Shown piece after piece: positions 28,597 through 51,902 of a stretch of DNA of 64,000 nucleotides (the stretch's first letter is position 1; each line of letters starts with the position of its first letter). Source of the stretch: a phage. The position numbers and the translations under genes were made by a program. The stretch is from sequence record PZ452610.1, one strand, 5' to 3'. The notes beneath the pieces were generated by a model that was not told the origin of the DNA, ran no database searches, and was given only the letters and a program-made list of their open reading frames with translations.

Positions 28597-28649
28597 TGTA
28601 TTTTTCCATAGGCATCATTATATTTTACTCATGTTTAAAAGATAAGATG

Positions 28650-28674
28650 ATTATATACTAAGGGTTATACAGCA
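28650..28674 (-). promoter_or_regulatory. MotA-box middle promoter upstream of uvsX
   Basis: Minus strand TGCTGTA (1 mismatch to MotA box), 12 bp, TATAAT. Confidence 0.4.
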
Positions 28675-28694
28675 TTTAAAACTTTAAATGACTC

Positions 28695-29243
28695 TTAACG
28701 AGCCCATTTGATGATTTCTGTAATCAAATCATTACGTTCGCTTGCATTAAATCCTATAACTTTGTTAGCACCATCATGATTAAGTAATTGATACGTTTGG
28801 ATTTTGTTATGAATTGCAAACTCTTCAAAATGTGAAATGACTGTATTAAAACCGAATGAAGACAAAGTGATAAGGTCGTCTTCAAAACTTTCAGTCATTT
28901 CGTTACGTGTTAAAATAATTGTGAACACATCATGGTTTTGGCAAAGACGAACATAATCCTGTTCATAAACGTCAAGAACCGAGTCCGCATCTTGTCGAAT
29001 ACGTCCATAAACCCAGTTACTAATATATCCACGGTCTAACAGATAAATCTTAGTAGGGTCTAAATAATTCAACATCGTTTCGAAACAGCCAACTTCATTT
29101 CGAGACTTAACATCGAAACGTCCATCAACTGTTCGTTTAGGGAAATCAATCTTTACATATCTTTCACTAATTTCCATTATGTCATTAATGAAAGTTGTTT
29201 TACCAGCATTATCCGGGCCATCTACTAAAATAATTTTAGCCAT
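28695..29243 (-). CDS. P-loop nucleotide kinase (thymidylate-kinase-like)
   Basis: 182 aa; Walker A VDGPDNAGKTT typical of Tmk/dNK-type kinases; occupies the T4 beta-gt neighbourhood. Confidence 0.5.
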   Translation of the reverse strand: MAKIILVDGPDNAGKTTFINDIMEISERYVKIDFPKRTVDGRFDVKSRNEVGCFETMLNYLDPTKIYLLDRGYISNWVYGRIRQDADSVLDVYEQDYVRLCQNHDVFTIILTRNEMTESFEDDLITLSSFGFNTVISHFEEFAIHNKIQTYQLLNHDGANKVIGFNASERNDLITEIIKWAR

Positions 29244-29244
29244 T

Positions 29245-30144
29245 TTATTCCTCGATTACGACATCTTCATATTTAGGTATATTATACGGTGAAGAAATTA
29301 AAGCATTAAAGTAGATGAACTCACCAAGACCTGGATGAAATACTTCTTCAGGATTTTCGAAATATTGAATCTTCGGACGTCCTTTAAGAATTTGATAGTA
29401 CTCAGTTTTAGTTGGTTTAAAAATTCGAATCAACGCTTCTTCAGGATACTTATTTCTGTCGAAGCTATTATTTGGATCGGTTATATAAAGCGGTTGACCT
29501 AATTGAATTGCGCATTCAACAACTTGTTCAAAACGATAGCATGGGTCACTAATTCGAAATGGATGAAAAATACCATCTAGATGAATAGGAGCCAAATCAC
29601 CTACAAGACGCTGCATGATGGAAGGACGTATAACTTTCTGCGTTACGATAATCTTATTACCATCTGCACCTGCGTTAACCAGCACTTCTTTTTGACGTTC
29701 ATTCAACACAGTAGTTTGAAGTGAACGATTAACCGACAACATATCAGTTTTTAAGAATTCGTCAATATAAAAACGTGGTTTATTAGGGTCTGCAGTGATA
29801 TTGAAATTGAATTCCACATCAAAAGCGCCGTCATATCCAGTGATATCTGTGATTAAAAAATCACAATCATAATAAGCAATTAATGAATCAACAACAAATT
29901 CATTTTCAGACCAGAAATATTTACGAGTGTTATACGCGTTATCTTTATACCATAATGGAACAAACTTAAATTCTGGAAAAAGACGTTCGCATTCTTTAAT
30001 ATCAGATGCATTACGTGGATATGTAATCACATCACCCGGATTAGCACGGTGCAAATGAAGTTGGAAGTTGCCATCCTTAAGGATAGCATACTGTCCAGTT
30101 TCATAAGACCGCATACTCAAGATTGGTACGCGGAAAATAGCCAT
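29245..30144 (-). CDS. hypothetical protein (299 aa); positional replacement of beta-gt, possible GT-A-like DxD motif
   Basis: ORF track; LIAYYDCDFLITD resembles hydrophobic strand + DxD; not similar to T4 beta-gt. Confidence 0.5.
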   Translation of the reverse strand: MAIFRVPILSMRSYETGQYAILKDGNFQLHLHRANPGDVITYPRNASDIKECERLFPEFKFVPLWYKDNAYNTRKYFWSENEFVVDSLIAYYDCDFLITDITGYDGAFDVEFNFNITADPNKPRFYIDEFLKTDMLSVNRSLQTTVLNERQKEVLVNAGADGNKIIVTQKVIRPSIMQRLVGDLAPIHLDGIFHPFRISDPCYRFEQVVECAIQLGQPLYITDPNNSFDRNKYPEEALIRIFKPTKTEYYQILKGRPKIQYFENPEEVFHPGLGEFIYFNALISSPYNIPKYEDVVIEE

Positions 30145-30860
30145 TAGTCAAGGAATCCTTTAACATAATCAAAATCACGTTCAAACACATGGGCACTTAC
30201 CATGGTATGAGTATAATCACCAACTTCTACCCCACATTCGTTAGCGATATAATGAAGTAATTTTCCTTGGAGATAAAAATCCAACTGCATAACAACAGCA
30301 CAGTTCTGAGAACGCATATGACAGTGGGTATAAAGCTTACCATCACGAATATAATAAGTCACTGAGTCAGTACATGGATATTCAAGCGTTTCGTCCGAAT
30401 CAAGCAAAGCCTGATCAGAACTTTCTAGAATTTGGAACACAACTCTTCGAGAGTTAGGCTTCTCTTTAAGTTCTTTTAGAAGAGCTGGTAATTGGGCCGC
30501 AATGCGAGGACCATAGAAAGTGTTGAAGTTCGCCGGCAAAACATCTGATTTTGGTTTAGAAATAAATTTAGCGACATTAGGATATGCCTTAAACGCTTCT
30601 TCTGCGTTGGTACCACCAGAAATCATAAACTTCCAGAAGTCTTCGGCATATTCATAAGAGATGCGGTTAATACGTGGGTCGGTCATTTTGAATGATGATG
30701 GAGTGTCAACAACTACTGTCATAGACCCAATTTCATTACAACGTCCAATACGAGAATCAGTTACGAATTCCGGGTTTTCTAAAATTTCACGATTGACTGC
30801 TTTAAATGCGGTTTGAAAATCTGCGGCTTTGATATATTTCATTGTGTTATGTTTTCCCAT
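30144..30860 (-). CDS. 42: dCMP hydroxymethylase (thymidylate synthase family)
   Basis: 238 aa; catalytic Cys in EYPCTDS; T4 position. Confidence 0.85.
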   Translation of the reverse strand: MGKHNTMKYIKAADFQTAFKAVNREILENPEFVTDSRIGRCNEIGSMTVVVDTPSSFKMTDPRINRISYEYAEDFWKFMISGGTNAEEAFKAYPNVAKFISKPKSDVLPANFNTFYGPRIAAQLPALLKELKEKPNSRRVVFQILESSDQALLDSDETLEYPCTDSVTYYIRDGKLYTHCHMRSQNCAVVMQLDFYLQGKLLHYIANECGVEVGDYTHTMVSAHVFERDFDYVKGFLD

Positions 30861-30879
30861 GTTTACCTCAATACAATTT

Positions 30880-30903
30880 ATTATATACTCAATTCGTAAA
30901 GCT
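30880..30903 (-). promoter_or_regulatory. MotA-box-like middle promoter upstream of gene 42
   Basis: Minus strand AGCTTTA, 11 bp, TATAAT. Confidence 0.35.
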
Positions 30904-31142
30904 TATTTGAATTTCTTGACAATGTTGATATAACGTAAAGCTTCAGCATCGATACTTCCAAGAACACTATGAAGAAATGCATCAGCGTAGTATTCCAATT
31001 GAACAGGTTCTTTAATCACTTTAGCCGCTTTAGTTTCAAACAGGCCCATCAGGGCCTTTTTAAGAATTTGTTCGTTGCTGTTAATTTTCATAGTCAAAAT
31101 CTCTTCATTAAGTTGGTGGTTAAAAGTTTTTCTAGAAATCAT
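30903..31142 (-). CDS. hypothetical protein (79 aa)
   Basis: ORF track; ATGA-coupled to upstream 386-aa ORF. Confidence 0.45.
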   Translation of the reverse strand: MISRKTFNHQLNEEILTMKINSNEQILKKALMGLFETKAAKVIKEPVQLEYYADAFLHSVLGSIDAEALRYINIVKKFK

Positions 31143-32299
31143 TCCGGGTACCTCAAAGCGTCATCAGAGTTAGTTATATCAATAATAGATATAGAGTTTT
31201 CTGCTAACCCGTTTTTAGATAATTGACGTTTATAATATCTTTCACAATATGTACACGTCGTCCCGCAGATTTCATTAGCACAATCGAAATCTGGATGTCT
31301 GAACCACCTTTTTTCTAAAAAGCCATCTAACAAAGAGGTTTCAATATTTACTGTATGTGAAAACTCAGTTTCGTTTTCAAGAGTGAAAATAGTCTCTAAA
31401 GGCTTCCACAGTTCTAACAAATTACCTTCAAACTTTTCAGAAGCGTATGCTTCAAGAACTTTCAAAATGTAGTCTGTGCTACCTGTACGTCCTGAAACTT
31501 TGAATTGAGTGATACCAATATCATTATAAAGTTTCAAATCTTGAGGACGAACAAAACGAGTTCTCAACCAGTTAAATGGGTCTGTATCACGAGCTTTAAT
31601 ACAGTGCTGCATAGGATATCCGTTTAAGGATTTAGCATCATCAGCTGTAACATCAGTACTATGGAAAATATAGCAAGAGTCACGATAGCTACAATGTGTT
31701 GTATACCCTTTACCAGCATTAGAACAGAACTCATTTACAAGAACTTCAAATATTATATTGTTCTTATTGCAAAACTCTGCTGCACGCTTCAGGAAAGAAA
31801 CTGAACGGTTCTTATGAATTCCACAGCAGACCTTTTTGATATTATACTGGTCATGCAAGTATTTGATTTGAGTTACAGCATCGACATGTAGAATTGTTGA
31901 AACTTCAATCTCAATGTCTTTATTGACTTCACGAACAATTTCCATAACAACAGGGTTAGCGATAGTAATACGCCATACGCCTATTGACCAAAGATACTGA
32001 ACATAATCCTGAATAGCTTTCTTCTTCCACCCAACTAGTTCTCTTTTTGAACCAGGATTTATCGTGTTGAGTGTATAGTTAAAGCAAATACCTAATTCGT
32101 TACAACGTTTAACGTAATCTTCTAACATCTTTTTGTCAACGTCAGGAAGCCTAAAATCAGGTCTGGCTGCTACAAAAGCCATTTCTCTTGTAGAGCCGTA
32201 TACTTCGTTTATCAAGCTATTAGGATAAGTTTTATTGAGCTCTACGATTTTATCAAGAAGAGCTAAATCAAAATTCGTTCCAATTTTAAAAGTATTCAT
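31139..32299 (-). CDS. hypothetical protein (386 aa) with C-terminal Cys cluster, part of sugar cassette
   Basis: Track start is GTG; first in-frame ATG at 32297-32299; C-terminal CANEICGTTCTYC plus internal EFCSNAGKGYTTHCSYRDSC. Confidence 0.55.
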   Translation of the reverse strand: MNTFKIGTNFDLALLDKIVELNKTYPNSLINEVYGSTREMAFVAARPDFRLPDVDKKMLEDYVKRCNELGICFNYTLNTINPGSKRELVGWKKKAIQDYVQYLWSIGVWRITIANPVVMEIVREVNKDIEIEVSTILHVDAVTQIKYLHDQYNIKKVCCGIHKNRSVSFLKRAAEFCNKNNIIFEVLVNEFCSNAGKGYTTHCSYRDSCYIFHSTDVTADDAKSLNGYPMQHCIKARDTDPFNWLRTRFVRPQDLKLYNDIGITQFKVSGRTGSTDYILKVLEAYASEKFEGNLLELWKPLETIFTLENETEFSHTVNIETSLLDGFLEKRWFRHPDFDCANEICGTTCTYCERYYKRQLSKNGLAENSISIIDITNSDDALRYPE

Positions 32300-32355
32300 T
32301 TTTTTGCATCTCACGTTAATTGATGCGATGGTTTTTGCAGGTCTTACTTAAATTA

Positions 32356-32742
32356 TTATAGATTCGGTTTATATGATTTAAATGTTTCGAATTCGCCTTT
32401 ATTCATAAGAGCTTTGAATTCGTCAGGACGCATAGCTTTGTCGTCGATAATCCAATCATATACTGGTTTATGTGTTAGCAAATTATGGTACTTCAAACCA
32501 ATGTTTTCCAAGTTCTGAATCAGACTTGGGAGAATGTCAATTGCTATACGACCAGGACCTACTGACTTCATACCGCGAGCAGTGTAAAGCGTTATGGTAT
32601 GCCCTGCATCATACAGGGCATTAATAGCAGTCACCATTTCGACGTCTGGTTTGAAGTTCACGTAATCACGATTGTTATTCCACTCTGTTATACAATCATC
32701 GACATCAAAACAAAGATTAAGCATGTTTTCTACACGGTGCAT
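32356..32742 (-). CDS. HAD-superfamily phosphatase (small)
   Basis: FDVDDCITEW is HAD motif I (DxD); TAATG overlap with upstream gene stop. Confidence 0.55.
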   Translation of the reverse strand: MHRVENMLNLCFDVDDCITEWNNNRDYVNFKPDVEMVTAINALYDAGHTITLYTARGMKSVGPGRIAIDILPSLIQNLENIGLKYHNLLTHKPVYDWIIDDKAMRPDEFKALMNKGEFETFKSYKPNL

Positions 32743-34427
32743 TAGATTCGTTCCCATTGATGAGTGATATCGCCACCGATTGGACGATAAGAAACACCAG
32801 TTTCTTTATCAGTTAGTACCCATTTACCAGGATTTTTTGTAATCAGAGTAGCCGTTACAGGTTCTGCTACGTCATAACTAATAGAGCCGTCCTGAAGTAC
32901 ACGGCCCATGTTACGTAATTGCTTAGTCAGAAGTTCCATACCTTTATAATATGCGGCTACCGCTTTAAGTGGATTATTCTTGAAATAACCACCTAATGCA
33001 ATCCAGATAATTGCTACAGCCAAATGATGATACTCGTTAAACGAACTCATCTTTCCATATTTGTAAACTAATGGATTGATGTTAATAGTCACATTACAAG
33101 TTGTTTCGTCAATAGTAAACTGTCCCCAGGTCGGATTAGCGTTGAATTCATCATAACCTGAAACAGCATAAAGCACTTTAGCTTCATCATACAATTTTGG
33201 CCCGTAAATCTTGGTTTCGCCAAAATATCCACGAGGGTCGATAAACTTGACTTCGCCGTTATCAGTAATCATAGTATTACTGAAGTTCGGGTCACCGTGA
33301 ATAACAGAGTACTGTCCCTGAGAACGGGTATGATAACGAATAAGATGTTCTAAAGCTTGCTTCAGCATTGGCTTCAGACGTCCAATCTTAGTGTAGTTCA
33401 CGTGTGTGATTTTACCAAATGAATCAATCAATGGCTGAATGCTTTCACAACGATCAATAACTTTCGTATAGAACTCTTTAGTGAAATCACGGCGAACAGT
33501 TTCAGGACTTACAAAATAAGTGTCTGTGCTGAATTTCAGTGCATCTAAAATTGCATCAACAATTTGTGGACGAGCAAGACTTGATTTGGATTTAATATAT
33601 TCAAATGCTGGCTTACCTTTAATACGTTCCATTTCAAAATTATTTTCATTTACCGAAACTAACTGAGGAACTGAATCTGATTTCACTTTCAAATACCATG
33701 AAATCTCATCTTTTTGAAGAGCTCGACCTTGTTCGGTTAACGCGAATTTAGTTACAGTTTCTTCGCCAATTTCAACTGCATTAAAACTACGATTAAGTTC
33801 ACGAACTTCATGAGCTTTTTCAAGTTTAGGCATATCACCTAAATCAATTAGATTCATAAGCTCTGATTTATTGAATGCACTGCCGTAAAGGAATTCTACG
33901 AAATCACGTCCTTTGCAGTATTCATGAATTTCCTCATCAGTAGAACCCATGTAGAATTCCCAGTCTTTGAACTGATAAATTCCTACAACATTACCGCCTG
34001 TTGAACCTACGTTAGTGATATTTTCACCATCGAAATTATATCGACATTCATCACCCTTAACATAGATTGCGTTAACATTCCAAGACCATGAACCAAAATC
34101 AGGAATAATATCACACCAGTTAACAATTACGTTATGGCCATCTAAATCTTTGTATAATTTAGCAAGAGCATAAGCAGAACCATACGCTTCATCAACTGTA
34201 CGAATAGTCACATTGAACCCTTCTTGCTCGCAATAAGCTCGAACAGTTTCAGCAAATTTTGAATGAACTACTACAATAATTTCATCTGCGCCAAGGTCAG
34301 AATAAATTGTATACAAATTGCTCAGAATAGTGTCTTGTTTATAGTTAACAAGAACTTTTGGAATATGATGCGTTATTGGATACAAACGAGTTGCCAGTCC
34401 AGCACCAAGAATAACAGCTTTTTTCAT
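32742..34427 (-). CDS. bifunctional sugar-1-phosphate nucleotidylyltransferase / APH-like sugar kinase
   Basis: 561 aa; N-terminal VILGAGLATRLYPITHHIPKVLV (RmlA/GalU/MurU-type NTase); C-terminal HGDPNFSNTMI...KFIDPRG (APH/choline-kinase-like catalytic loop). Confidence 0.7.
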   Translation of the reverse strand: MKKAVILGAGLATRLYPITHHIPKVLVNYKQDTILSNLYTIYSDLGADEIIVVVHSKFAETVRAYCEQEGFNVTIRTVDEAYGSAYALAKLYKDLDGHNVIVNWCDIIPDFGSWSWNVNAIYVKGDECRYNFDGENITNVGSTGGNVVGIYQFKDWEFYMGSTDEEIHEYCKGRDFVEFLYGSAFNKSELMNLIDLGDMPKLEKAHEVRELNRSFNAVEIGEETVTKFALTEQGRALQKDEISWYLKVKSDSVPQLVSVNENNFEMERIKGKPAFEYIKSKSSLARPQIVDAILDALKFSTDTYFVSPETVRRDFTKEFYTKVIDRCESIQPLIDSFGKITHVNYTKIGRLKPMLKQALEHLIRYHTRSQGQYSVIHGDPNFSNTMITDNGEVKFIDPRGYFGETKIYGPKLYDEAKVLYAVSGYDEFNANPTWGQFTIDETTCNVTININPLVYKYGKMSSFNEYHHLAVAIIWIALGGYFKNNPLKAVAAYYKGMELLTKQLRNMGRVLQDGSISYDVAEPVTATLITKNPGKWVLTDKETGVSYRPIGGDITHQWERI

Positions 34428-34468
34428 GTTGTGGTCCTCATTGGTAAGTAGGTGTATTGTACACTATT

Positions 34469-34612
34469 CTAGTTAAAGCATTCATACTTTGCTTGTAGTC
34501 CAATCATAATCCATCCAATTACAAGTGTTGGAATCATTACTGGAGCCGTTAAGCTCCAGTAGATAGTCATGACAAGCATCAATAGTAAAAGTCCTATTGT
34601 TATTGCTTTCAT
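34469..34612 (-). CDS. small membrane protein (47 aa)
   Basis: Sub-threshold ORF MKAITIGLLLLMLVMTIYWSL...; ATGA overlap with SIS gene stop. Confidence 0.35.
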   Translation of the reverse strand: MKAITIGLLLLMLVMTIYWSLTAPVMIPTLVIGWIMIGLQAKYECFN

Positions 34613-35244
34613 TGTTCGCCTCGTAACATGGCACCTAGTGCACCGCCTGGATGGAACTTAAGAAAGTCATTAGAGGTAAATCCACGTTCAGACGAAAGGT
34701 TGATAGCAAACGTATCGATAAGCGCTAACAACAATGTAGTGGACATAGTCGGAGCCAGAGAATTCTCATCAACCTCTACCGCGATGCCTGTACAGAAAGA
34801 GTAATCAAAAAGGGCTTCATTTTCTTGCGGAATGTCTGGGTTACAATGCAACAGAATCTGTTTGACATTTGGACGAATCATTTTAAGATGCTTAGCCACG
34901 CCTATCATTTCTTCAGTCTTACCAGAACGACTAATATGAATCAACACATCATTAGGCGCAATGAATCCTGCATCACCGTGAGAATAATGCCCAGTGTTCA
35001 AGTACATACTCGGGATACCGAGTGAAGCAAATGTCTCAGAAGCTTTAGTTGCAATATTAGCATTCTTACCAACACCTGTAATAATTACTCGGCTTTCATA
35101 ATTACTAAGTCCAGGGCGTCGAAGAGTTTCTAGAATAGCATTATAACGAGCAGGGTTTTGACTAATTACTTTGGCCATAGCGGCCAAAGAAGAAGCTTGT
35201 TTTATGATTGCGTCAATAGCGATAGTAATAGGAGTAGTTTTCAT
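34609..35244 (-). CDS. SIS-domain sugar-phosphate isomerase (KdsD/GutQ-like arabinose-5-phosphate isomerase, no CBS domains)
   Basis: 211 aa; GVGKNANIATK...HGDAGFI...LIHISRSGKTEE...FHPGGALG parallels the KdsD SIS domain. Confidence 0.7.
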   Translation of the reverse strand: MKTTPITIAIDAIIKQASSLAAMAKVISQNPARYNAILETLRRPGLSNYESRVIITGVGKNANIATKASETFASLGIPSMYLNTGHYSHGDAGFIAPNDVLIHISRSGKTEEMIGVAKHLKMIRPNVKQILLHCNPDIPQENEALFDYSFCTGIAVEVDENSLAPTMSTTLLLALIDTFAINLSSERGFTSNDFLKFHPGGALGAMLRGEQ

Positions 35245-35284
35245 ATTTCTCTCATTTAATTAGTTTACCGTCCATGACATTATA

Positions 35285-37996
35285 TCAAAAATCGAACATA
35301 TCGAACAGAGATGCTTTCTTCTCGTAATCGAGTTTCGCTGCTGATGTGAATCCTTCAAGTGGTTTAATAAATGTCTTCTCAAGGAGAACAGTGTAGTCCA
35401 TCCAATGAAGTACGTCATCTTTAATTAAATCTGTGATTTCAGTACCAGAAGGCCATGCGATACATTTATCACCGAACGGGTTTCCTTCACGTAAAGGCAG
35501 AACATATACTTTTTCACCTTCTACAACTTGTGGAGCATCAATATTACCTTTGATAGCTCTGTTATATGTCAGAATTCCACGAATATGGAACGGACATTTA
35601 GGACCAGGGAATCCACCTACATCATATTTAGCAATGTTATTCGCAGAAGATACCGACGCGATGCTAATATAATTCAATTGACGGAATTCTTTTTCAAACT
35701 CTTTAAAATATTCTTGTAATGATTCTTCACCTTCTTGAAGCATACGACGAATACATTCTTTAAGAGCTTTCTGTACTGCTTTAGGGGTCGAAGATTTCTG
35801 AGTCTCTAGACCCATGATTTTGAGTTTAGGCTCAGCGTAACGAGTACCTTCCATATCCCACACGTTTAATGCGTAACGTTTCTTACCAGTCCAGAATCCA
35901 CCAATACCTTTAGAACCGAGCGGAGGACCAGCGATAGCTTCTCGGTCCATGAACATTAAGTGTTGTTTATTGTTCATGTATTCACACATTTCACGGAAAC
36001 CTCTATCAATAGCAGGTTCCATACGTTCACGAGCGAACTTATCTAAGAAGTCTACCCAATGGTTGGTATCACGGAATTTAGATTCACCAACCTTATCGAT
36101 AATTTTATCAGCAGATACGTAAATAGAGTCTGTATCACCATAAAGAACGAAAGCTTCACCTTCTGTACCACAAACTTCGTTCAGATATTCATTAACTTTA
36201 CGTTCAATCCACTGTAAAGCCATTTGACCAAATGTTGTGATTGCAGTAGCATTACGCAAATCGTAATAACGGAACCAAACGTTGCCAAGTGCACCATAAA
36301 GTGAGTTGATAAGCAATTTACGGTTAATTTGTGCAGTCATACCTGCAACTTCAGTACGTTGAGCTCTAAACAACATTTCATTAAGAGATTTAGCAGACAA
36401 CTTTTTAATCTTTTCTTTAATCTCGTCAGTGAAGTCGAAACGATAATCAACATCTAATGGTTCGTCAACAGAAAGATTAGGATTATGCAACGCCTCTTTA
36501 ATTATTTCACCATTACGTTGAGCCGCAAGCATATAACCTTTATGTTCTTTACGTTGATTAAAGACCTTAGTGATTTCAGTTGGAACTACACCATCACGGT
36601 CTTTATAATACATCATGCCATTAGGAGAACAACTGTACACATCTGAAGGACGTTCAGCGATTGCGTTAATATAATCATGCAGTGGAGCTACTTTAAACGT
36701 TCCTGCTATTGTTTCCGGGCTAATATTCACTTGGCGAATAATACTTGGATACAGAGATGTAAGGTCGAAACTCATTACATATTTGTATCGATTTGGAATA
36801 GGTTCCTTAACAAAAGCGCCAGGATAAGGTTGAACCGGGTGAGAACGACCTTGTGGAATCACCTTGTTCTGCTCTTTAAGGCTATTAAAAATAATAGCAT
36901 CCCATGTTTTAATTGGGCTAAACACAGATTGAATCTGTATCTTAGCATAATAACCCATGTCCAAACTCAAGTTGATGAACTGACGCTTAGCATCAATTTG
37001 CAATACACGATACACGTCGATAATGTTATAAGAAATATATCGTTGGTGATTGCTTTCACGAAGCTTAGAAATAGGGCCGTCATATTTCAGTTTACCAACG
37101 TTCAATTCAAATTCTGAAATGTAATCTAGAGAATACGACGGTTGATTGGTAAAAGAGAATTTTTTGTAAAGGTCGATATAATCAAGAACAGAGATACCGA
37201 ACAATGTAATGATTTCACGAGAACCATACATGTTTTCGATAACTTTAACACGAGTTTTACGATGCGGTGATAAACGTTTCGCAGTAGATTCGCCAAAAAT
37301 ATTCTTGATTCGGTTATACACATATGGAATATCAAATGACTCAACGTTCCATCCAGTCAAAATGACAGGAGTTTTCTGTTGCCAGAAGTTGAGATATTCC
37401 ATCAACAATTCTTTTTCGTTATCGAACGGCATATAAATGATTTTATCGATAATTTCAGATGGAACTTCATCACCGCCTTGTTCTTGAAGCTTAGCAGCGA
37501 TTTCAATAGACCATTCTTCTACATTACCATATGGAGAATTCAATAGATCAAATACGTAGAACCTGTCGTCAATTGAGTCATAATGGGTGATAGCATCAAT
37601 CGGATGTTTTGCTTGTGATGGCTCAGGGAACCCATCCGGAGATGTTACTTCGATGTCGAAGTTAGCCACACGAATTTTTGTATGGTCGTATTTGATTTCA
37701 TAGTTATAAGTGTCAGACAAATACGCCAATTTGAAATCGTCCATGCCAAGTGCTTCAAGTCCGATATCTTCCATGCGTTTAATCCATTGGGAGGCATCAC
37801 GCATATTAGCGAACAACTTACGAGTACACGGCTTACCGTAGATATCGAAATATTTCGTAGCCTGACTTTCCGGACAATGAGCAAACAGTGATGGTTTATA
37901 TTCTACTTCACGAGTACGTTCACGGCCATTAGAATCGATGTAACGTTCAAAAATTGAATCACCAATCTGTTCAACCGTTAAGTAAAATTCTTTCAT
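35285..37996 (-). CDS. 43: DNA polymerase (family B) with 3'-5' exonuclease
   Basis: 903 aa; near-colinear with T4 gp43 (MKEFY..., FDIE, YGDTDS motifs). Confidence 0.95.
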   Translation of the reverse strand: MKEFYLTVEQIGDSIFERYIDSNGRERTREVEYKPSLFAHCPESQATKYFDIYGKPCTRKLFANMRDASQWIKRMEDIGLEALGMDDFKLAYLSDTYNYEIKYDHTKIRVANFDIEVTSPDGFPEPSQAKHPIDAITHYDSIDDRFYVFDLLNSPYGNVEEWSIEIAAKLQEQGGDEVPSEIIDKIIYMPFDNEKELLMEYLNFWQQKTPVILTGWNVESFDIPYVYNRIKNIFGESTAKRLSPHRKTRVKVIENMYGSREIITLFGISVLDYIDLYKKFSFTNQPSYSLDYISEFELNVGKLKYDGPISKLRESNHQRYISYNIIDVYRVLQIDAKRQFINLSLDMGYYAKIQIQSVFSPIKTWDAIIFNSLKEQNKVIPQGRSHPVQPYPGAFVKEPIPNRYKYVMSFDLTSLYPSIIRQVNISPETIAGTFKVAPLHDYINAIAERPSDVYSCSPNGMMYYKDRDGVVPTEITKVFNQRKEHKGYMLAAQRNGEIIKEALHNPNLSVDEPLDVDYRFDFTDEIKEKIKKLSAKSLNEMLFRAQRTEVAGMTAQINRKLLINSLYGALGNVWFRYYDLRNATAITTFGQMALQWIERKVNEYLNEVCGTEGEAFVLYGDTDSIYVSADKIIDKVGESKFRDTNHWVDFLDKFARERMEPAIDRGFREMCEYMNNKQHLMFMDREAIAGPPLGSKGIGGFWTGKKRYALNVWDMEGTRYAEPKLKIMGLETQKSSTPKAVQKALKECIRRMLQEGEESLQEYFKEFEKEFRQLNYISIASVSSANNIAKYDVGGFPGPKCPFHIRGILTYNRAIKGNIDAPQVVEGEKVYVLPLREGNPFGDKCIAWPSGTEITDLIKDDVLHWMDYTVLLEKTFIKPLEGFTSAAKLDYEKKASLFDMFDF

Positions 37997-49617: not shown

Positions 49618-50088
49618 TTAATCATGTTTCCACACCCCATTGGTATTCGACCAAAGTCGCTGATTATCTGATCCTCGCCACAGTTTTTTGGTCGGAAGAT
49701 TTTTCTCATACTTCCCATCAATAATAACATCAACATATTTAAGCATTTCTAGTTGTTTAATATCTTCAAACTTATATCCTGTCCACAACCAAATGCTTTT
49801 ATTGGGATAAATATTTTTTACTGTTTGAACAATGCAATGAACAACATCTCTATTATCAGGATAGAGAGGGTCGCCTCCGGTTATAGTCAATCCTTCTATA
49901 TAATCATTATTCAAACATTCAATTAATTGTTCTAGTGTCTCTCCAGTGAATGGAGCACCATTTCTAGCGTTCCATGTTGATTTATTATAACACCCTTCAC
50001 ATTTATGCAAACAACCTGTAACGAAAAGAACGACCCTGCAACCAGGGCCATTCACAAAATCGCAAGGATAAAATCTATCATAATTCAT
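49618..50088 (-). CDS. nrdG: anaerobic ribonucleotide reductase activating protein (radical SAM)
   Basis: 156 aa; CLHKCEGC radical-SAM cysteine motif; downstream of nrdD. Confidence 0.9.
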   Translation of the reverse strand: MNYDRFYPCDFVNGPGCRVVLFVTGCLHKCEGCYNKSTWNARNGAPFTGETLEQLIECLNNDYIEGLTITGGDPLYPDNRDVVHCIVQTVKNIYPNKSIWLWTGYKFEDIKQLEMLKYVDVIIDGKYEKNLPTKKLWRGSDNQRLWSNTNGVWKHD

Positions 50089-51902
50089 TGGTGTTTAACC
50101 CTATGCATGATTTCTTTATTTTTACCGAGATTAAATCCGCGTTCGTTCGGATTTCCCAAATAACCGCATGTTCTTCTTATGGTGTTCATCTTTTTAGGAT
50201 CAGTTTCTCCGCAAACTGAACAAACAAATCCGTTTTCAGTAGGAGTCATTTCATGGGTACTTCCACATGTAAAACATTTATCTACTGGCATATTAACACC
50301 AAAATAATCTAAATGTTGTGCAGCATAATCCCAGACAGCCTCAAGTCCCTTTAAATTGTTTTTCATATCTGGAAGTTCAACATAAGAAATGTGACCACCT
50401 GTCGCAATGAAATGATATGGCGCTTCACGAGAAATCTTTTCAAACGGAGTAATATTTTCTTCTACTGAAACATGGAAACTATTAGTGTACCAGCCTTTAT
50501 CTGTAACATCTTTTACACTTCCATATTTTTCTGTGTCTAGTTTACAGAAACGATAACAAAGGTTTTCAGCAGGTGTAGAATACAAGCTAAAAGCAAACCC
50601 AGTTCTTTCAGTCCATTGTTTAAGAAGAGCATTCATTTTAGTTAAAATTTCTTGTCCAATATCACGTCCGACAAGAATATTCAATTCGTGGATACCAATG
50701 TATCCTAAAGACACTGAACTTCTACCGTTTTTAAATAACTCAATTATGTCGTCATCAGGTTTAAGACGAACCCCGAATGCACCTTCTTGGTAAAGAATAG
50801 GAGCAACAGTCGCTTTAACTCCTTTTAAGGAACTAATTCTACACATCAAGGCTTCAAAACACAGATCCATACGTTCATTGAATAATTCAACAAATTTCTG
50901 TTCATTGAACTGTGTTCCAATATAAGAATCTAATGCGATACGAGGAAGATTCAGTGTTACAACACCGAGATTATTACGTCCATCAAGAATTTCATTACCA
51001 GTCGAATCTTTCCATACGCTCAAGAAACTACGGCAACCCATTGGAGAAACTGGAACTGAAGAACCAGTAATAGCTTTATTATTCTTAGCTGAAATAATAT
51101 CAGGATACATTCTTTTGCTTGCGCACTCTAGAGCAAGCTGCTTAATATCATAGTTCGGATCGTCTTTATAAAGATTAACACCTTCTTCAACGAACATAAC
51201 AAGCTTAGGGAAAATAGGAGTTATTCCATCACGACCAAGACCTTTAATGCGGTTTTTAAGAATTGCCTTCTGAATCATTCGTTCAGTCCAATCGGCCCCC
51301 GTACCAAATGTAATTGTTACAAAAGGTGTTTGTCCGTTTGAACTAAAGAGAGTATTTACTTCATATTCATAAGCTTGGAACGCGTCATAGACATCTTTTT
51401 CTGTTTTGGATTGAGCATAATTCAACGCATCAGCGATTTGCCATTTTTCCGCATCTTCAACATGTTTAGCGTATGTGCGTTTAACATAAGGAGAAAGAAC
51501 TTTATCGACATTTGCAAATGTAGTTCCGCCATACTGATGTGAAGCAACTTGTGCAGTAATTTGTGCCATAATTGCAGTAGCAACACCAATCGATTTAGGC
51601 GTTTCAATTTGAGCATTGCCTAATTTAAATCCGTTCTCAAGCATCCCCTTTAAATCGACTAAACAACAATTAGTAAACGGAAGAGCAGGAGAATAATCAA
51701 TATCATGCATGTGGATAATTCCACTTTCATGCGCATTCATAATAAAAGACGGGACCATATTTTTGGCAATGTGCTTAGACACAATACCAGCCATAAGGTC
51801 CCGTTGAGTTGGAAAAACACGAGAATCTTTATTAGCATTCTCGTTTAAAAGGTCTTTATTAGTTTTATGAATTAATCCTTCAATTTCTTTTTCAATTTTC
51901 AT
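50085..51902 (-). CDS. nrdD: anaerobic ribonucleoside-triphosphate reductase (glycyl radical enzyme)
   Basis: 605 aa; C-terminal RRTCGYLG glycyl-radical motif and CxxC zinc site; T4 NrdD length. Confidence 0.95.
   Translation of the reverse strand: MKIEKEIEGLIHKTNKDLLNENANKDSRVFPTQRDLMAGIVSKHIAKNMVPSFIMNAHESGIIHMHDIDYSPALPFTNCCLVDLKGMLENGFKLGNAQIETPKSIGVATAIMAQITAQVASHQYGGTTFANVDKVLSPYVKRTYAKHVEDAEKWQIADALNYAQSKTEKDVYDAFQAYEYEVNTLFSSNGQTPFVTITFGTGADWTERMIQKAILKNRIKGLGRDGITPIFPKLVMFVEEGVNLYKDDPNYDIKQLALECASKRMYPDIISAKNNKAITGSSVPVSPMGCRSFLSVWKDSTGNEILDGRNNLGVVTLNLPRIALDSYIGTQFNEQKFVELFNERMDLCFEALMCRISSLKGVKATVAPILYQEGAFGVRLKPDDDIIELFKNGRSSVSLGYIGIHELNILVGRDIGQEILTKMNALLKQWTERTGFAFSLYSTPAENLCYRFCKLDTEKYGSVKDVTDKGWYTNSFHVSVEENITPFEKISREAPYHFIATGGHISYVELPDMKNNLKGLEAVWDYAAQHLDYFGVNMPVDKCFTCGSTHEMTPTENGFVCSVCGETDPKKMNTIRRTCGYLGNPNERGFNLGKNKEIMHRVKHQ

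Follow-up and report, generated by a model that had tools for sequence, protein, structure and literature searches.

The U32 gene and its product

The 64,000-nucleotide stretch of sequence record PZ452610.1 considered here (the window) belongs to a T4-like genome of the Straboviridae and contains, among genes for the arabinosylation of DNA, a gene for a cysteine-rich protein of the U32 family. The gene lies on the minus strand, running from an ATG at 32299 to 31139, and encodes 386 amino acids. It is the ortholog of gp50 of phage RB69, to which the protein is 99.2% identical, and the product is predicted to be an Fe-S, prephenate-dependent pyrimidine C5-hydroxylase. The original prediction had placed an open reading frame (ORF) of this length at the same positions without stating the strand, and had drawn attention to its richness in cysteine; both observations are borne out. 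An alternative GTG start at 32314 would give a form of 391 residues, but the ATG is favoured because the N-termini of the orthologs read MNTFK or MKNTFK. The protein contains 13 Cys. In its stop-to-stop frame Cys makes up 3.5% of the residues, the second-highest value among the 49 ORFs of 150 amino acids or more on the minus strand of the window, whose median is 1.2%. The richest of these large ORFs is a frame of 158 amino acids at 49621–50094 (minus strand), with 4.4% Cys.

GenBank and RefSeq already name the product 'peptidase family U32 protein', and the label 'collagenase-like protease' also occurs in public records. The earlier description of the protein as one of unknown function consequently holds as regards experiments and not as regards the family, and it is the functional reading rather than the U32 membership that is new. 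PF01136 (Peptidase_U32) matches residues 94–286 at E = 7.3e-11, its 42.2 bits lying above the curated gathering score of 22.4. The structure model has a predicted TIM-barrel fold resembling that of MK0906 (PDB 5d88), a U32 protein of Methanopyrus kandleri (14% identity, 247 residues) that covers the barrel and not the Cys-rich C-terminal part. The 5d88 entry was reached by fold comparison only, as plain sequence and profile hidden Markov model (HMM) searches of the PDB gave nothing relevant.

Homologs of the protein split into two tiers, the first consisting of Straboviridae orthologs with 76–89% identity and the second of metagenomic proteins with 40–58% identity. An alignment of 44 sequences of the family has a mean column identity of 53%, against which ten Cys are invariant (C158, C177, C192, C203, C209, C233, C340, C345, C349 and C352), and a pattern kept at so modest an overall identity is not a matter of chance. 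It is scarcely credible that the protein is a genuine collagenase-like protease, as the family name and most database labels would have it. Those labels, 'peptidase' and 'collagenase-like protease', are what speaks for such an activity, but the family has no known proteolytic mechanism and its characterised members are tied to hydroxylation. A protease would moreover leave the ten invariant Cys, the nucleotide-metabolism setting of the gene and its linkage to genes for prephenate supply unexplained.

Putative metal-site motifs

The internal and C-terminal Cys segments to which the original prediction had pointed can both be located. The U32 core motif, E190-F-C192...H-C203-x5-C209 (EFCSNAGKGYTTHCSYRDSC), occupies residues 190–209, encoded by positions 31673–31732 of the minus strand, and holds a putative catalytic Glu together with putative [4Fe-4S] ligands. 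E190, C203 and C209 align with E161, C169 and C176 of RlhA and are invariant in all 44 sequences. The three RlhA residues have been tested by mutagenesis and shown to matter (PMC5727448). The first Cys pair of RlhA and UbiU (C169/C176 in both) is hence present along with the Glu, with a spacing of CX5C rather than the canonical CX6C. The segment that holds the third and fourth Cys of RlhA and TrhP (GDCSQAC and GTCTNAC) is absent from the phage protein in the alignment. The order of Cys seen instead is C192-x10-C203-x5-C209-x23-C233, in which the invariant C192 and C233 would be the obvious substitutes for the missing pair. C233, whose codon lies at 31601–31603 (minus strand), is placed near C232 of UbiU by MAFFT and is a candidate fourth ligand.

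The C-terminal cluster, C340-x4-C345-G-x-[TS]-C349-x-Y-C352 (CANEICGTTCTYC), spans residues 340–352 (positions 31244–31282, minus strand) and forms a putative second metal or [4Fe-4S] site. Its four Cys are invariant across both tiers, and the structure model is confident in this block, with a predicted local distance difference test (pLDDT) score of 90–94. At least four conserved Cys would be needed to ligate a [4Fe-4S] cluster, and the protein offers four in or near the U32 motif and four more at the C-terminus. Cys outside the U32 motif are also used by UbiV and by RlhA (PMC5727448). A radical SAM reading of the stretch CGTTCTYC (residues 345–352) was rejected on account of the fourth invariant Cys, C340, that precedes it, its C-terminal location and the lack of a Radical_SAM match in Pfam.

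The domains associated with the RNA substrates of RlhA and TrhP (DUF3656 and Peptidase_U32_C) were not detected, PF01136 being the sole Pfam match, and the UbiU equivalog model NCBIfam NF047963 gave 17.7 bits against a cut-off of 440. Because of these missing C-terminal domains and a UbiU score far below the cut-off, the phage protein is taken to represent a distinct U32 subfamily rather than an ortholog of any characterised member. The original prediction had likened the protein to U32-type Fe-S hydroxylases as a pattern impression and had proposed sensitive profile and structure searches as a check. The likeness is supported by the PF01136 match above threshold, by the TIM barrel that led to 5d88 and by the retention of the RlhA residues.

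Comparison with characterised U32 enzymes

All characterised U32 proteins have been implicated in hydroxylations that proceed without O2 and depend on prephenate. Hydroxylation of ubiquinone precursors without O2 requires UbiU and UbiV, in each of which four Cys bind a [4Fe-4S] cluster. TrhP (YegQ) forms 5-hydroxyuridine at U34 of tRNA with prephenate and without O2, alongside TrhO, which needs O2 for the same modification. RlhA (YdcP) makes 5-hydroxycytidine at C2501 of 23S rRNA and needs both prephenate and Fe-S biogenesis to do so (PMC5727448). For UbiUV prephenate has been demonstrated to be the oxygen donor, and genetic evidence shows that RlhA and TrhP need it too; in E. coli it is made only via PheA and TyrA. 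The recruitment by phages of prephenate-dependent RNA-modification chemistry for DNA has been described in a paper on phage CmoA/CmoX, where the availability of prephenate was raised as a question.

RlhA shares with the phage protein its Pfam domain and its E161, C169 and C176, is the best E. coli paralog by profile comparison (hhalign 79.6%, 205 columns) and carries out a cytosine C5 hydroxylation like that proposed here. It differs in being a protein of 653 amino acids with DUF3656 and C-terminal Cys580 and Cys611 that acts on a ribosome assembly intermediate, whereas the phage protein, with 386 amino acids, has a CX4CX3CX2C C-terminus of its own and, as its predicted substrate, a deoxynucleotide destined for DNA. 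TrhP and TrhO provide a precedent for the hydroxylation of one pyrimidine C5 by both a prephenate-dependent U32 enzyme and an O2-dependent enzyme, as is proposed for gp50 and the neighbouring gp48. However, TrhP, with 453 amino acids, has a uridine of tRNA as its substrate and matches the phage family weakly and in its N-terminal part only (hhalign 9.4%), and the O2-dependent partner is a flavin-binding ThyA homolog in the phage as opposed to a rhodanese (TrhO) in the host. UbiU and UbiV resemble the phage protein in their U32 domain and in the position of UbiU C232 near C233; UbiUV has a small-molecule substrate and two clusters per functional unit, as would the phage enzyme. Unlike the single phage protein, they form a heterodimer that works on a lipid with an accessory lipid-binding protein, UbiT, and the UbiU motif reads CX6CX16CX38C.

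The arabinosylation gene cluster

Across the region from 28600 to 35300 the window matches E. coli O157 typing phages 3, 6 and 13 at 100% identity and RB69 at 98.4%. The DNA of RB69 contains arabosylated 5-hydroxycytosine (5hoC) and not hydroxymethylcytosine (Lee et al., NAR 2026, PMC13326640). Modification precedes replication and takes place on the mononucleotide: gp48 binds flavin and produces 5-hydroxy-dCMP with an oxygen that was traced to O2 by 18O2 labelling (PMC13326640). The sugar is supplied by a route from ribulose 5-phosphate (Ru5P) through arabinose 5-phosphate (Ara5P), its 1,5-bisphosphate (Ara1,5P2) and arabinose 1-phosphate (Ara1P) to UDP-arabinofuranose (UDP-Araf), assigned to gp55, gp52:53 and gp51 (PMC13326640). 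In that study gp50 appears as a table entry only, labelled 'Sugar or heterocycle reductase' with 5d88 as structural match, and the Discussion cites RlhA and the tRNA pathway as other routes of pyrimidine hydroxylation without connecting gp50 to them (PMC13326640).

All of the corresponding genes are found on the minus strand of the window. On the downstream side of the U32 gene are the gp49 ortholog of 79 amino acids (30903–31142; PHROG 8601), the ThyA homolog gp48 (30144–30860; Pfam Thymidylat_synt, 99.2% identical to RB69 gp48), which is the flavin- and O2-dependent 5-hydroxy-dCMP synthase, the gp46:47 ortholog proposed to be the first DNA arabinosyltransferase acting on 5hoC (29245–30144; PMC13326640) and a Tmk-like nucleotide kinase, gp45 (28695–29243; PHROG 761; PMC13326640 Table 1). 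On the upstream side, library matches and PMC13326640 identify an AfhF-like HAD phosphatase of UDP-arabinose synthesis (gp51, 32356–32757), an AfhE-like bifunctional nucleotidyltransferase/kinase (gp52:53, 32742–34427) and an arabinose-5-phosphate isomerase (gp55, 34609–35244). The gene for DNA polymerase gp43 follows at 35285–37996. Both gp46:47 and gp52:53 are single intact ORFs here, of 299 and 561 amino acids, which supports the published view that the split ORFs of the RB69 reference are sequencing errors.

The hydroxylases of the gp48 type (RB69 gp48, DLP3 gp80 and the HY126 hydroxylase) would share product and pathway with the U32 protein, and the genes are adjacent. They differ from it in an unrelated fold and cofactor and in their need for O2, and whereas they are universal in this type of modification, the U32 gene is optional.

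The start codon of gp49 overlaps the stop codon of the U32 gene (ATGA), which suggests translational coupling, and gp49 may assist the U32 enzyme as an accessory factor. The small protein has no Cys, contains a conserved motif YYxDAFxHSxxGxIxxExxRxIN and gave no match in Pfam or NCBIfam. The notion that it is a diverged chorismate mutase was discarded: in addition to the missing Pfam and NCBIfam match, BLASTP gave E = 7 and hhalign a probability of 0.1%, and gp49 and a chorismate mutase occur in tandem (loci L016, L022, L024 and L029), as in Yersinia and Pectobacterium phages. In Yersinia, Pectobacterium and related phages gp49 lies between the U32 gene and the chorismate mutase gene, and RB69-like phages keep gp49 and have no chorismate mutase.

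Close relatives in the Straboviridae

The hosts of the tier-1 phages are Escherichia, Shigella, Klebsiella, Enterobacter, Serratia, Yersinia, Proteus, Providencia, Edwardsiella, Pectobacterium and Shewanella. The U32 gene occurs in 222 INPHARED phage records, all matches being at least 80% identical, and among the matches listed the hosts are Enterobacterales and Shewanella (phage Thanatos). Of the 374 records with the ThyA homolog gp48, 57 are of Acinetobacter and 20 of Rhizobium phages; both genera are strict aerobes, and phages of neither are among the U32 matches listed. Across genera the identity of the U32 protein (82–89%) exceeds that of gp48 (73–82%) and of gp46 (51–71%), which places it among the most conserved proteins of the cluster and indicates strong purifying selection.

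Chorismate mutase is the enzyme that produces prephenate. In the Enterobacter phage Entb_45 a gene for a chorismate mutase of the AroQ type, which scores 40.9 bits with Pfam CM_2 (cut-off 27), lies between the U32 gene and the ThyA homolog, with a 4-bp overlap with both. Chorismate mutases of this type are present in 56 phage records, always adjoining the ThyA homolog, and in 13 of the 15 tier-1 loci from IMG/VR. Neither the U32 gene nor chorismate mutase is present in the loci of phage VR5, Acinetobacter phage AB-Navy71 and Pseudomonas phage PspYZU05, which keep the ThyA homolog, the glycosyltransferase and sugar genes. In the Dhakavirus VR5 of Escherichia (L009) the ThyA homolog, glycosyltransferase, AfhE-like and HAD genes are present, and U32, chorismate mutase and arabinose-5-phosphate isomerase genes were not detected. 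VR5 has a reduced cluster and is an exception to the pattern of host physiology proposed below.

Distant relatives in metagenomes and cellular genomes

Tier 2 comprises about 250 proteins, found in metagenomes only, for which 38 loci were recovered and reduced to 29 non-redundant ones; the contigs were viewed within ±10 kb of the U32 gene. A Pfam census of the two neighbours on either side in the 29 viral loci (108 proteins) is headed by DAHP_synth_1 and Thymidylate_kin with six proteins each, and CM_2 accounts for four. Other neighbours are DNA polymerase III alpha, NTP-transferase, dUTPase/DCD, dCMP deaminase, TET-associated glycosyltransferase (TAGT) and SIS proteins. NCBIfam identifies each of the six DAHP_synth_1 proteins as a DAHP synthase, and three have an AroQ chorismate mutase fused at the C-terminus. 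These shikimate-pathway auxiliary genes all adjoin the U32 gene in viral contigs (L039, 8411–9433; L041, 108–971; L043, 8353–9387; L012, 10145–10891; L028, 9384–10130; L053, 11100–12197). That the six might instead be KDO8P synthases using the arabinose-5-phosphate from the neighbouring isomerase was dismissed, given that NCBIfam bit scores favour DAHP synthase two- to fourfold and three carry the fused mutase. An HMM search placed one or both of chorismate mutase and DAHP synthase no more than about two genes from U32 in 8 of the 29 viral loci and in 3 of 10 loci from cellular genomes.

The U32 gene of the window stands between base-modifying and sugar-activating genes, and in the distant group many homologs adjoin genes for arabinose-5-phosphate isomerase and AfhE-like proteins, the order isomerase, AfhE, U32 being found in eight loci; full-length gp46:47 homologs adjoin the U32 start in six. 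Together with the TIM barrel, a common fold of sugar enzymes, and the tentative 'Sugar or heterocycle reductase' label (PMC13326640 Table 1), this setting could be taken to mean that the protein modifies a sugar or reduces a heterocycle, acting for example on arabinose or a UDP-arabinose intermediate. Such a role seems decidedly improbable. The route from Ru5P to UDP-Araf is complete with gp55, gp52:53 and gp51, the Acinetobacter phage DLP3 makes tri-arabinosyl-5hoC from a cluster without a U32 gene (PMC13326640), and several homologs are without arabinose genes and have dCMP deaminase, deoxynucleoside kinase, NT5C, TAGT or GLF instead. A sugar substrate would also give no rationale for the linkage to chorismate mutase and DAHP synthase, and to our knowledge no U32 member acts on sugars. 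Where the original prediction allowed for modification of either the sugar or the base, the complete UDP-Araf route speaks against the former, and the conserved RlhA core and the 5hoC product favour the latter.

In two distant loci, L013 (9001–15179) and L037 (10001–16260), a gene for a TAGT (33.9 bits against a cut-off of 27.5) comes directly after the U32 stop, followed by a dCTP deaminase/dUTPase, a second TAGT-like gene and a UDP-galactopyranose mutase; this gene set suggests DNA with a galactofuranosylated hydroxypyrimidine. TET/JBP enzymes depend on Fe(II), 2-oxoglutarate and O2, their targets being 5-methylcytosine or T in DNA, and a TAGT, judged by its family name, normally partners a DNA-level oxygenase. 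The U32 gene appears to fill the slot that this name implies for a TET dioxygenase. In both cases a hydroxylase would be followed by a DNA glycosyltransferase, but the U32 enzyme would be independent of O2 and would hydroxylate the ring carbon itself.

The pairing with TAGT bears on whether the U32 hydroxylase might act on a polynucleotide, either on residual cytosines in replicated phage DNA or on RNA of the host or the phage (rRNA C2501 or tRNA U34) so as to tune translation in infected cells. RlhA and TrhP both act on RNA polymers, RlhA is the best-matching paralog, and linkage to chorismate mutase would suit any prephenate-dependent reaction. A polymer substrate is nevertheless considered unlikely: PF01136 stands without DUF3656 or Peptidase_U32_C, the host already has RlhA and TrhP, and the gene is set among nucleotide and sugar-nucleotide genes in which Tmk-like kinases and dCMP/dCTP deaminases are the commonest neighbours. 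The RB69 modification is, moreover, pre-replicative (PMC13326640).

A hydroxylase of the gp48 type is rarely seen in the distant group. A ThyA-family HMM gave one weak match (L030, E = 3.6e-4) within ±10 kb of the U32 gene in 39 loci, and Thymidylat_synt is in neither of the Pfam census lists of the distant loci; the U32 protein seems to be the sole candidate hydroxylase there. Beyond viruses, the subfamily occurs in only 10 of about 185,000 species genomes. These metagenome-assembled genomes (MAGs) or isolates represent for the most part obligate anaerobes (Erysipelotrichales, Oscillospiraceae, Romboutsia, Tannerella and Phocaeicola).

Proposed function

On comparative genomics, and with moderate confidence, the U32 protein is proposed to be an anaerobic, prephenate-dependent cytosine C5-hydroxylase. 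This assignment draws on three independent lines of evidence: the conserved catalytic core of RlhA, a product base, 5hoC, for which the only known phage enzyme requires O2, and the linkage to genes for prephenate supply and DNA glycosylation. That linkage recurs in two unrelated phage groups. A single-subunit Fe-S enzyme would add a hydroxyl group to C5 of cytosine with no need of O2; the oxygen would come from prephenate, which would be converted to phenylpyruvate and CO2. The most likely substrate is dCMP; a mononucleotide is favoured because Tmk-like kinases and deaminases are frequent neighbours and the RNA-binding domains of RlhA and TrhP are absent. The hydroxylated nucleotide would next be phosphorylated and built into DNA by the phage polymerase, after which gp46:47 would add arabinose to it there. 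Of the two predicted metal sites, one would be a [4Fe-4S] cluster bound by C192, C203, C209 and C233, and the other, at the C-terminal CX4CX3CX2C, a second such cluster that serves as an electron relay.

The U32 route would supply 5hoC for arabinosylated DNA when gp48 fails for want of O2, as in the anoxic gut, so that gp50 and gp48 would mirror the O2-independent and O2-dependent pairs of the host, TrhP/TrhO and UbiUV/UbiIHF. Phages of facultative anaerobes would carry both routes, those of strict aerobes the O2 route only and those of strict anaerobes the U32 route only. Indirect support for independence of O2 comes from the lack of Acinetobacter and Rhizobium phages among the U32 matches listed and from the predominance of obligate anaerobes among the cellular genomes with the gene. 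The demand for the donor would be considerable: with a genome of 169 kb and 37% G+C, we estimate about 6e4 cytosines per genome and hence millions of prephenate molecules per burst. A phage-encoded chorismate mutase or DAHP synthase, presumably insensitive to feedback, could secure this supply. A broader proposal, in which we place slightly less than even confidence, is that the subfamily provides a widespread O2-independent route to the hypermodification of DNA with 5-hydroxypyrimidines. The U32 enzyme would in this case be the only hydroxylase by which uncultured phages of anaerobes create a handle for glycosylation, and their own DAHP synthase and/or chorismate mutase would redirect the shikimate flux of the host to prephenate as a stoichiometric oxygen donor for hydroxylation on the scale of a genome.

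Several observations weigh against the hydroxylase assignment. The canonical CX6CX15CX3/4C motif is half present, with CX5C as its first pair, and in vitro reconstitution has so far been reported for no U32 hydroxylase. The tier-1 loci without chorismate mutase are those of the RB69-like Mosigviruses, the window included, and of Klebsiella phage Marfa, and a search of the rest of the window for a relocated copy found neither a chorismate mutase nor a DAHP synthase; the link to prephenate is consequently drawn for the window from its relatives. DLP3 makes its modification from a cluster without the U32 gene, as noted above, and the E. coli Dhakaviruses are without it too, so the gene must be dispensable at least under aerobic conditions. 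The correlation with the host is confounded by phage phylogeny, with perhaps 2–4 independent events of gain or loss, and ThyA homologs may lie more than 10 kb away in the distant contigs. Family membership, fold, retention of the residues validated in RlhA and the genomic associations are shown by the present analysis; substrate, prephenate use, independence of O2, metal content and all else that concerns function are deduced from sequence comparison.

Significance

The published 5hoC hydroxylase needs O2, yet enteric hosts live mostly without it, and the U32 gene is a testable candidate to fill this gap. An anaerobic, prephenate-based route to 5hoC in DNA with prephenate supplied by the phage was not found in the literature searched, to which two papers, one in Nat Chem Biol (He et al. 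2026) and one in Cell Host Microbe (Mahler et al. 2025), did not belong. Lee et al. cite both and still enter gp50 as a 'reductase' (PMC13326640), which suggests that it was given a function in neither. If the proposal is true, it would explain how such gut phages protect their DNA without oxygen and give a reason for the presence of shikimate-pathway genes in phages. It would also extend hydroxylation by U32 enzymes and prephenate from RNA and quinones to DNA, with the first U32 enzyme acting on DNA precursors. DNA modification, and with it the escape of phages from restriction and CRISPR as well as the way in which therapeutic phages behave, would then depend on oxygen and on the aromatic metabolism of the host. 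Moreover, a soluble single subunit with a soluble mononucleotide substrate could allow the first reconstitution of U32 chemistry in vitro.

Other gene settings

Some loci place the U32 gene, or its neighbours, in other company. On a jumbo-phage-like JGI contig of 466 kb (L002, 7447–9086) a dCMP deaminase gene overlaps the U32 start by 4 bp, and genes for Tmk, a UDG-superfamily protein and DNA polymerase III alpha lie upstream of U32; dUMP is a possible substrate in this setting, and the product would then be 5-hydroxyuracil instead of 5-hydroxycytosine. A Bacillota MAG (L003, 8001–15428, the same locus as L067) has two divergent U32 paralogs together with an NT5C deoxyribonucleotidase, an NMN-transporter-like gene, a deoxynucleoside kinase, a radical SAM/SPASM protein and a nucleoside deoxyribosyltransferase-like gene, and this cluster may represent a different pathway of modification at the nucleoside level. 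The same contig encodes a dockerin-bearing GH43 protein, typical of anaerobic cellulolytic Firmicutes. Lastly, in Kosakonia phage Kc304 (MZ348424; L008, 9923–10834) a gp46-like glycosyltransferase, 59% identical to that of the window, is labelled 'cysteine desulfurase', which is probably a misannotation.

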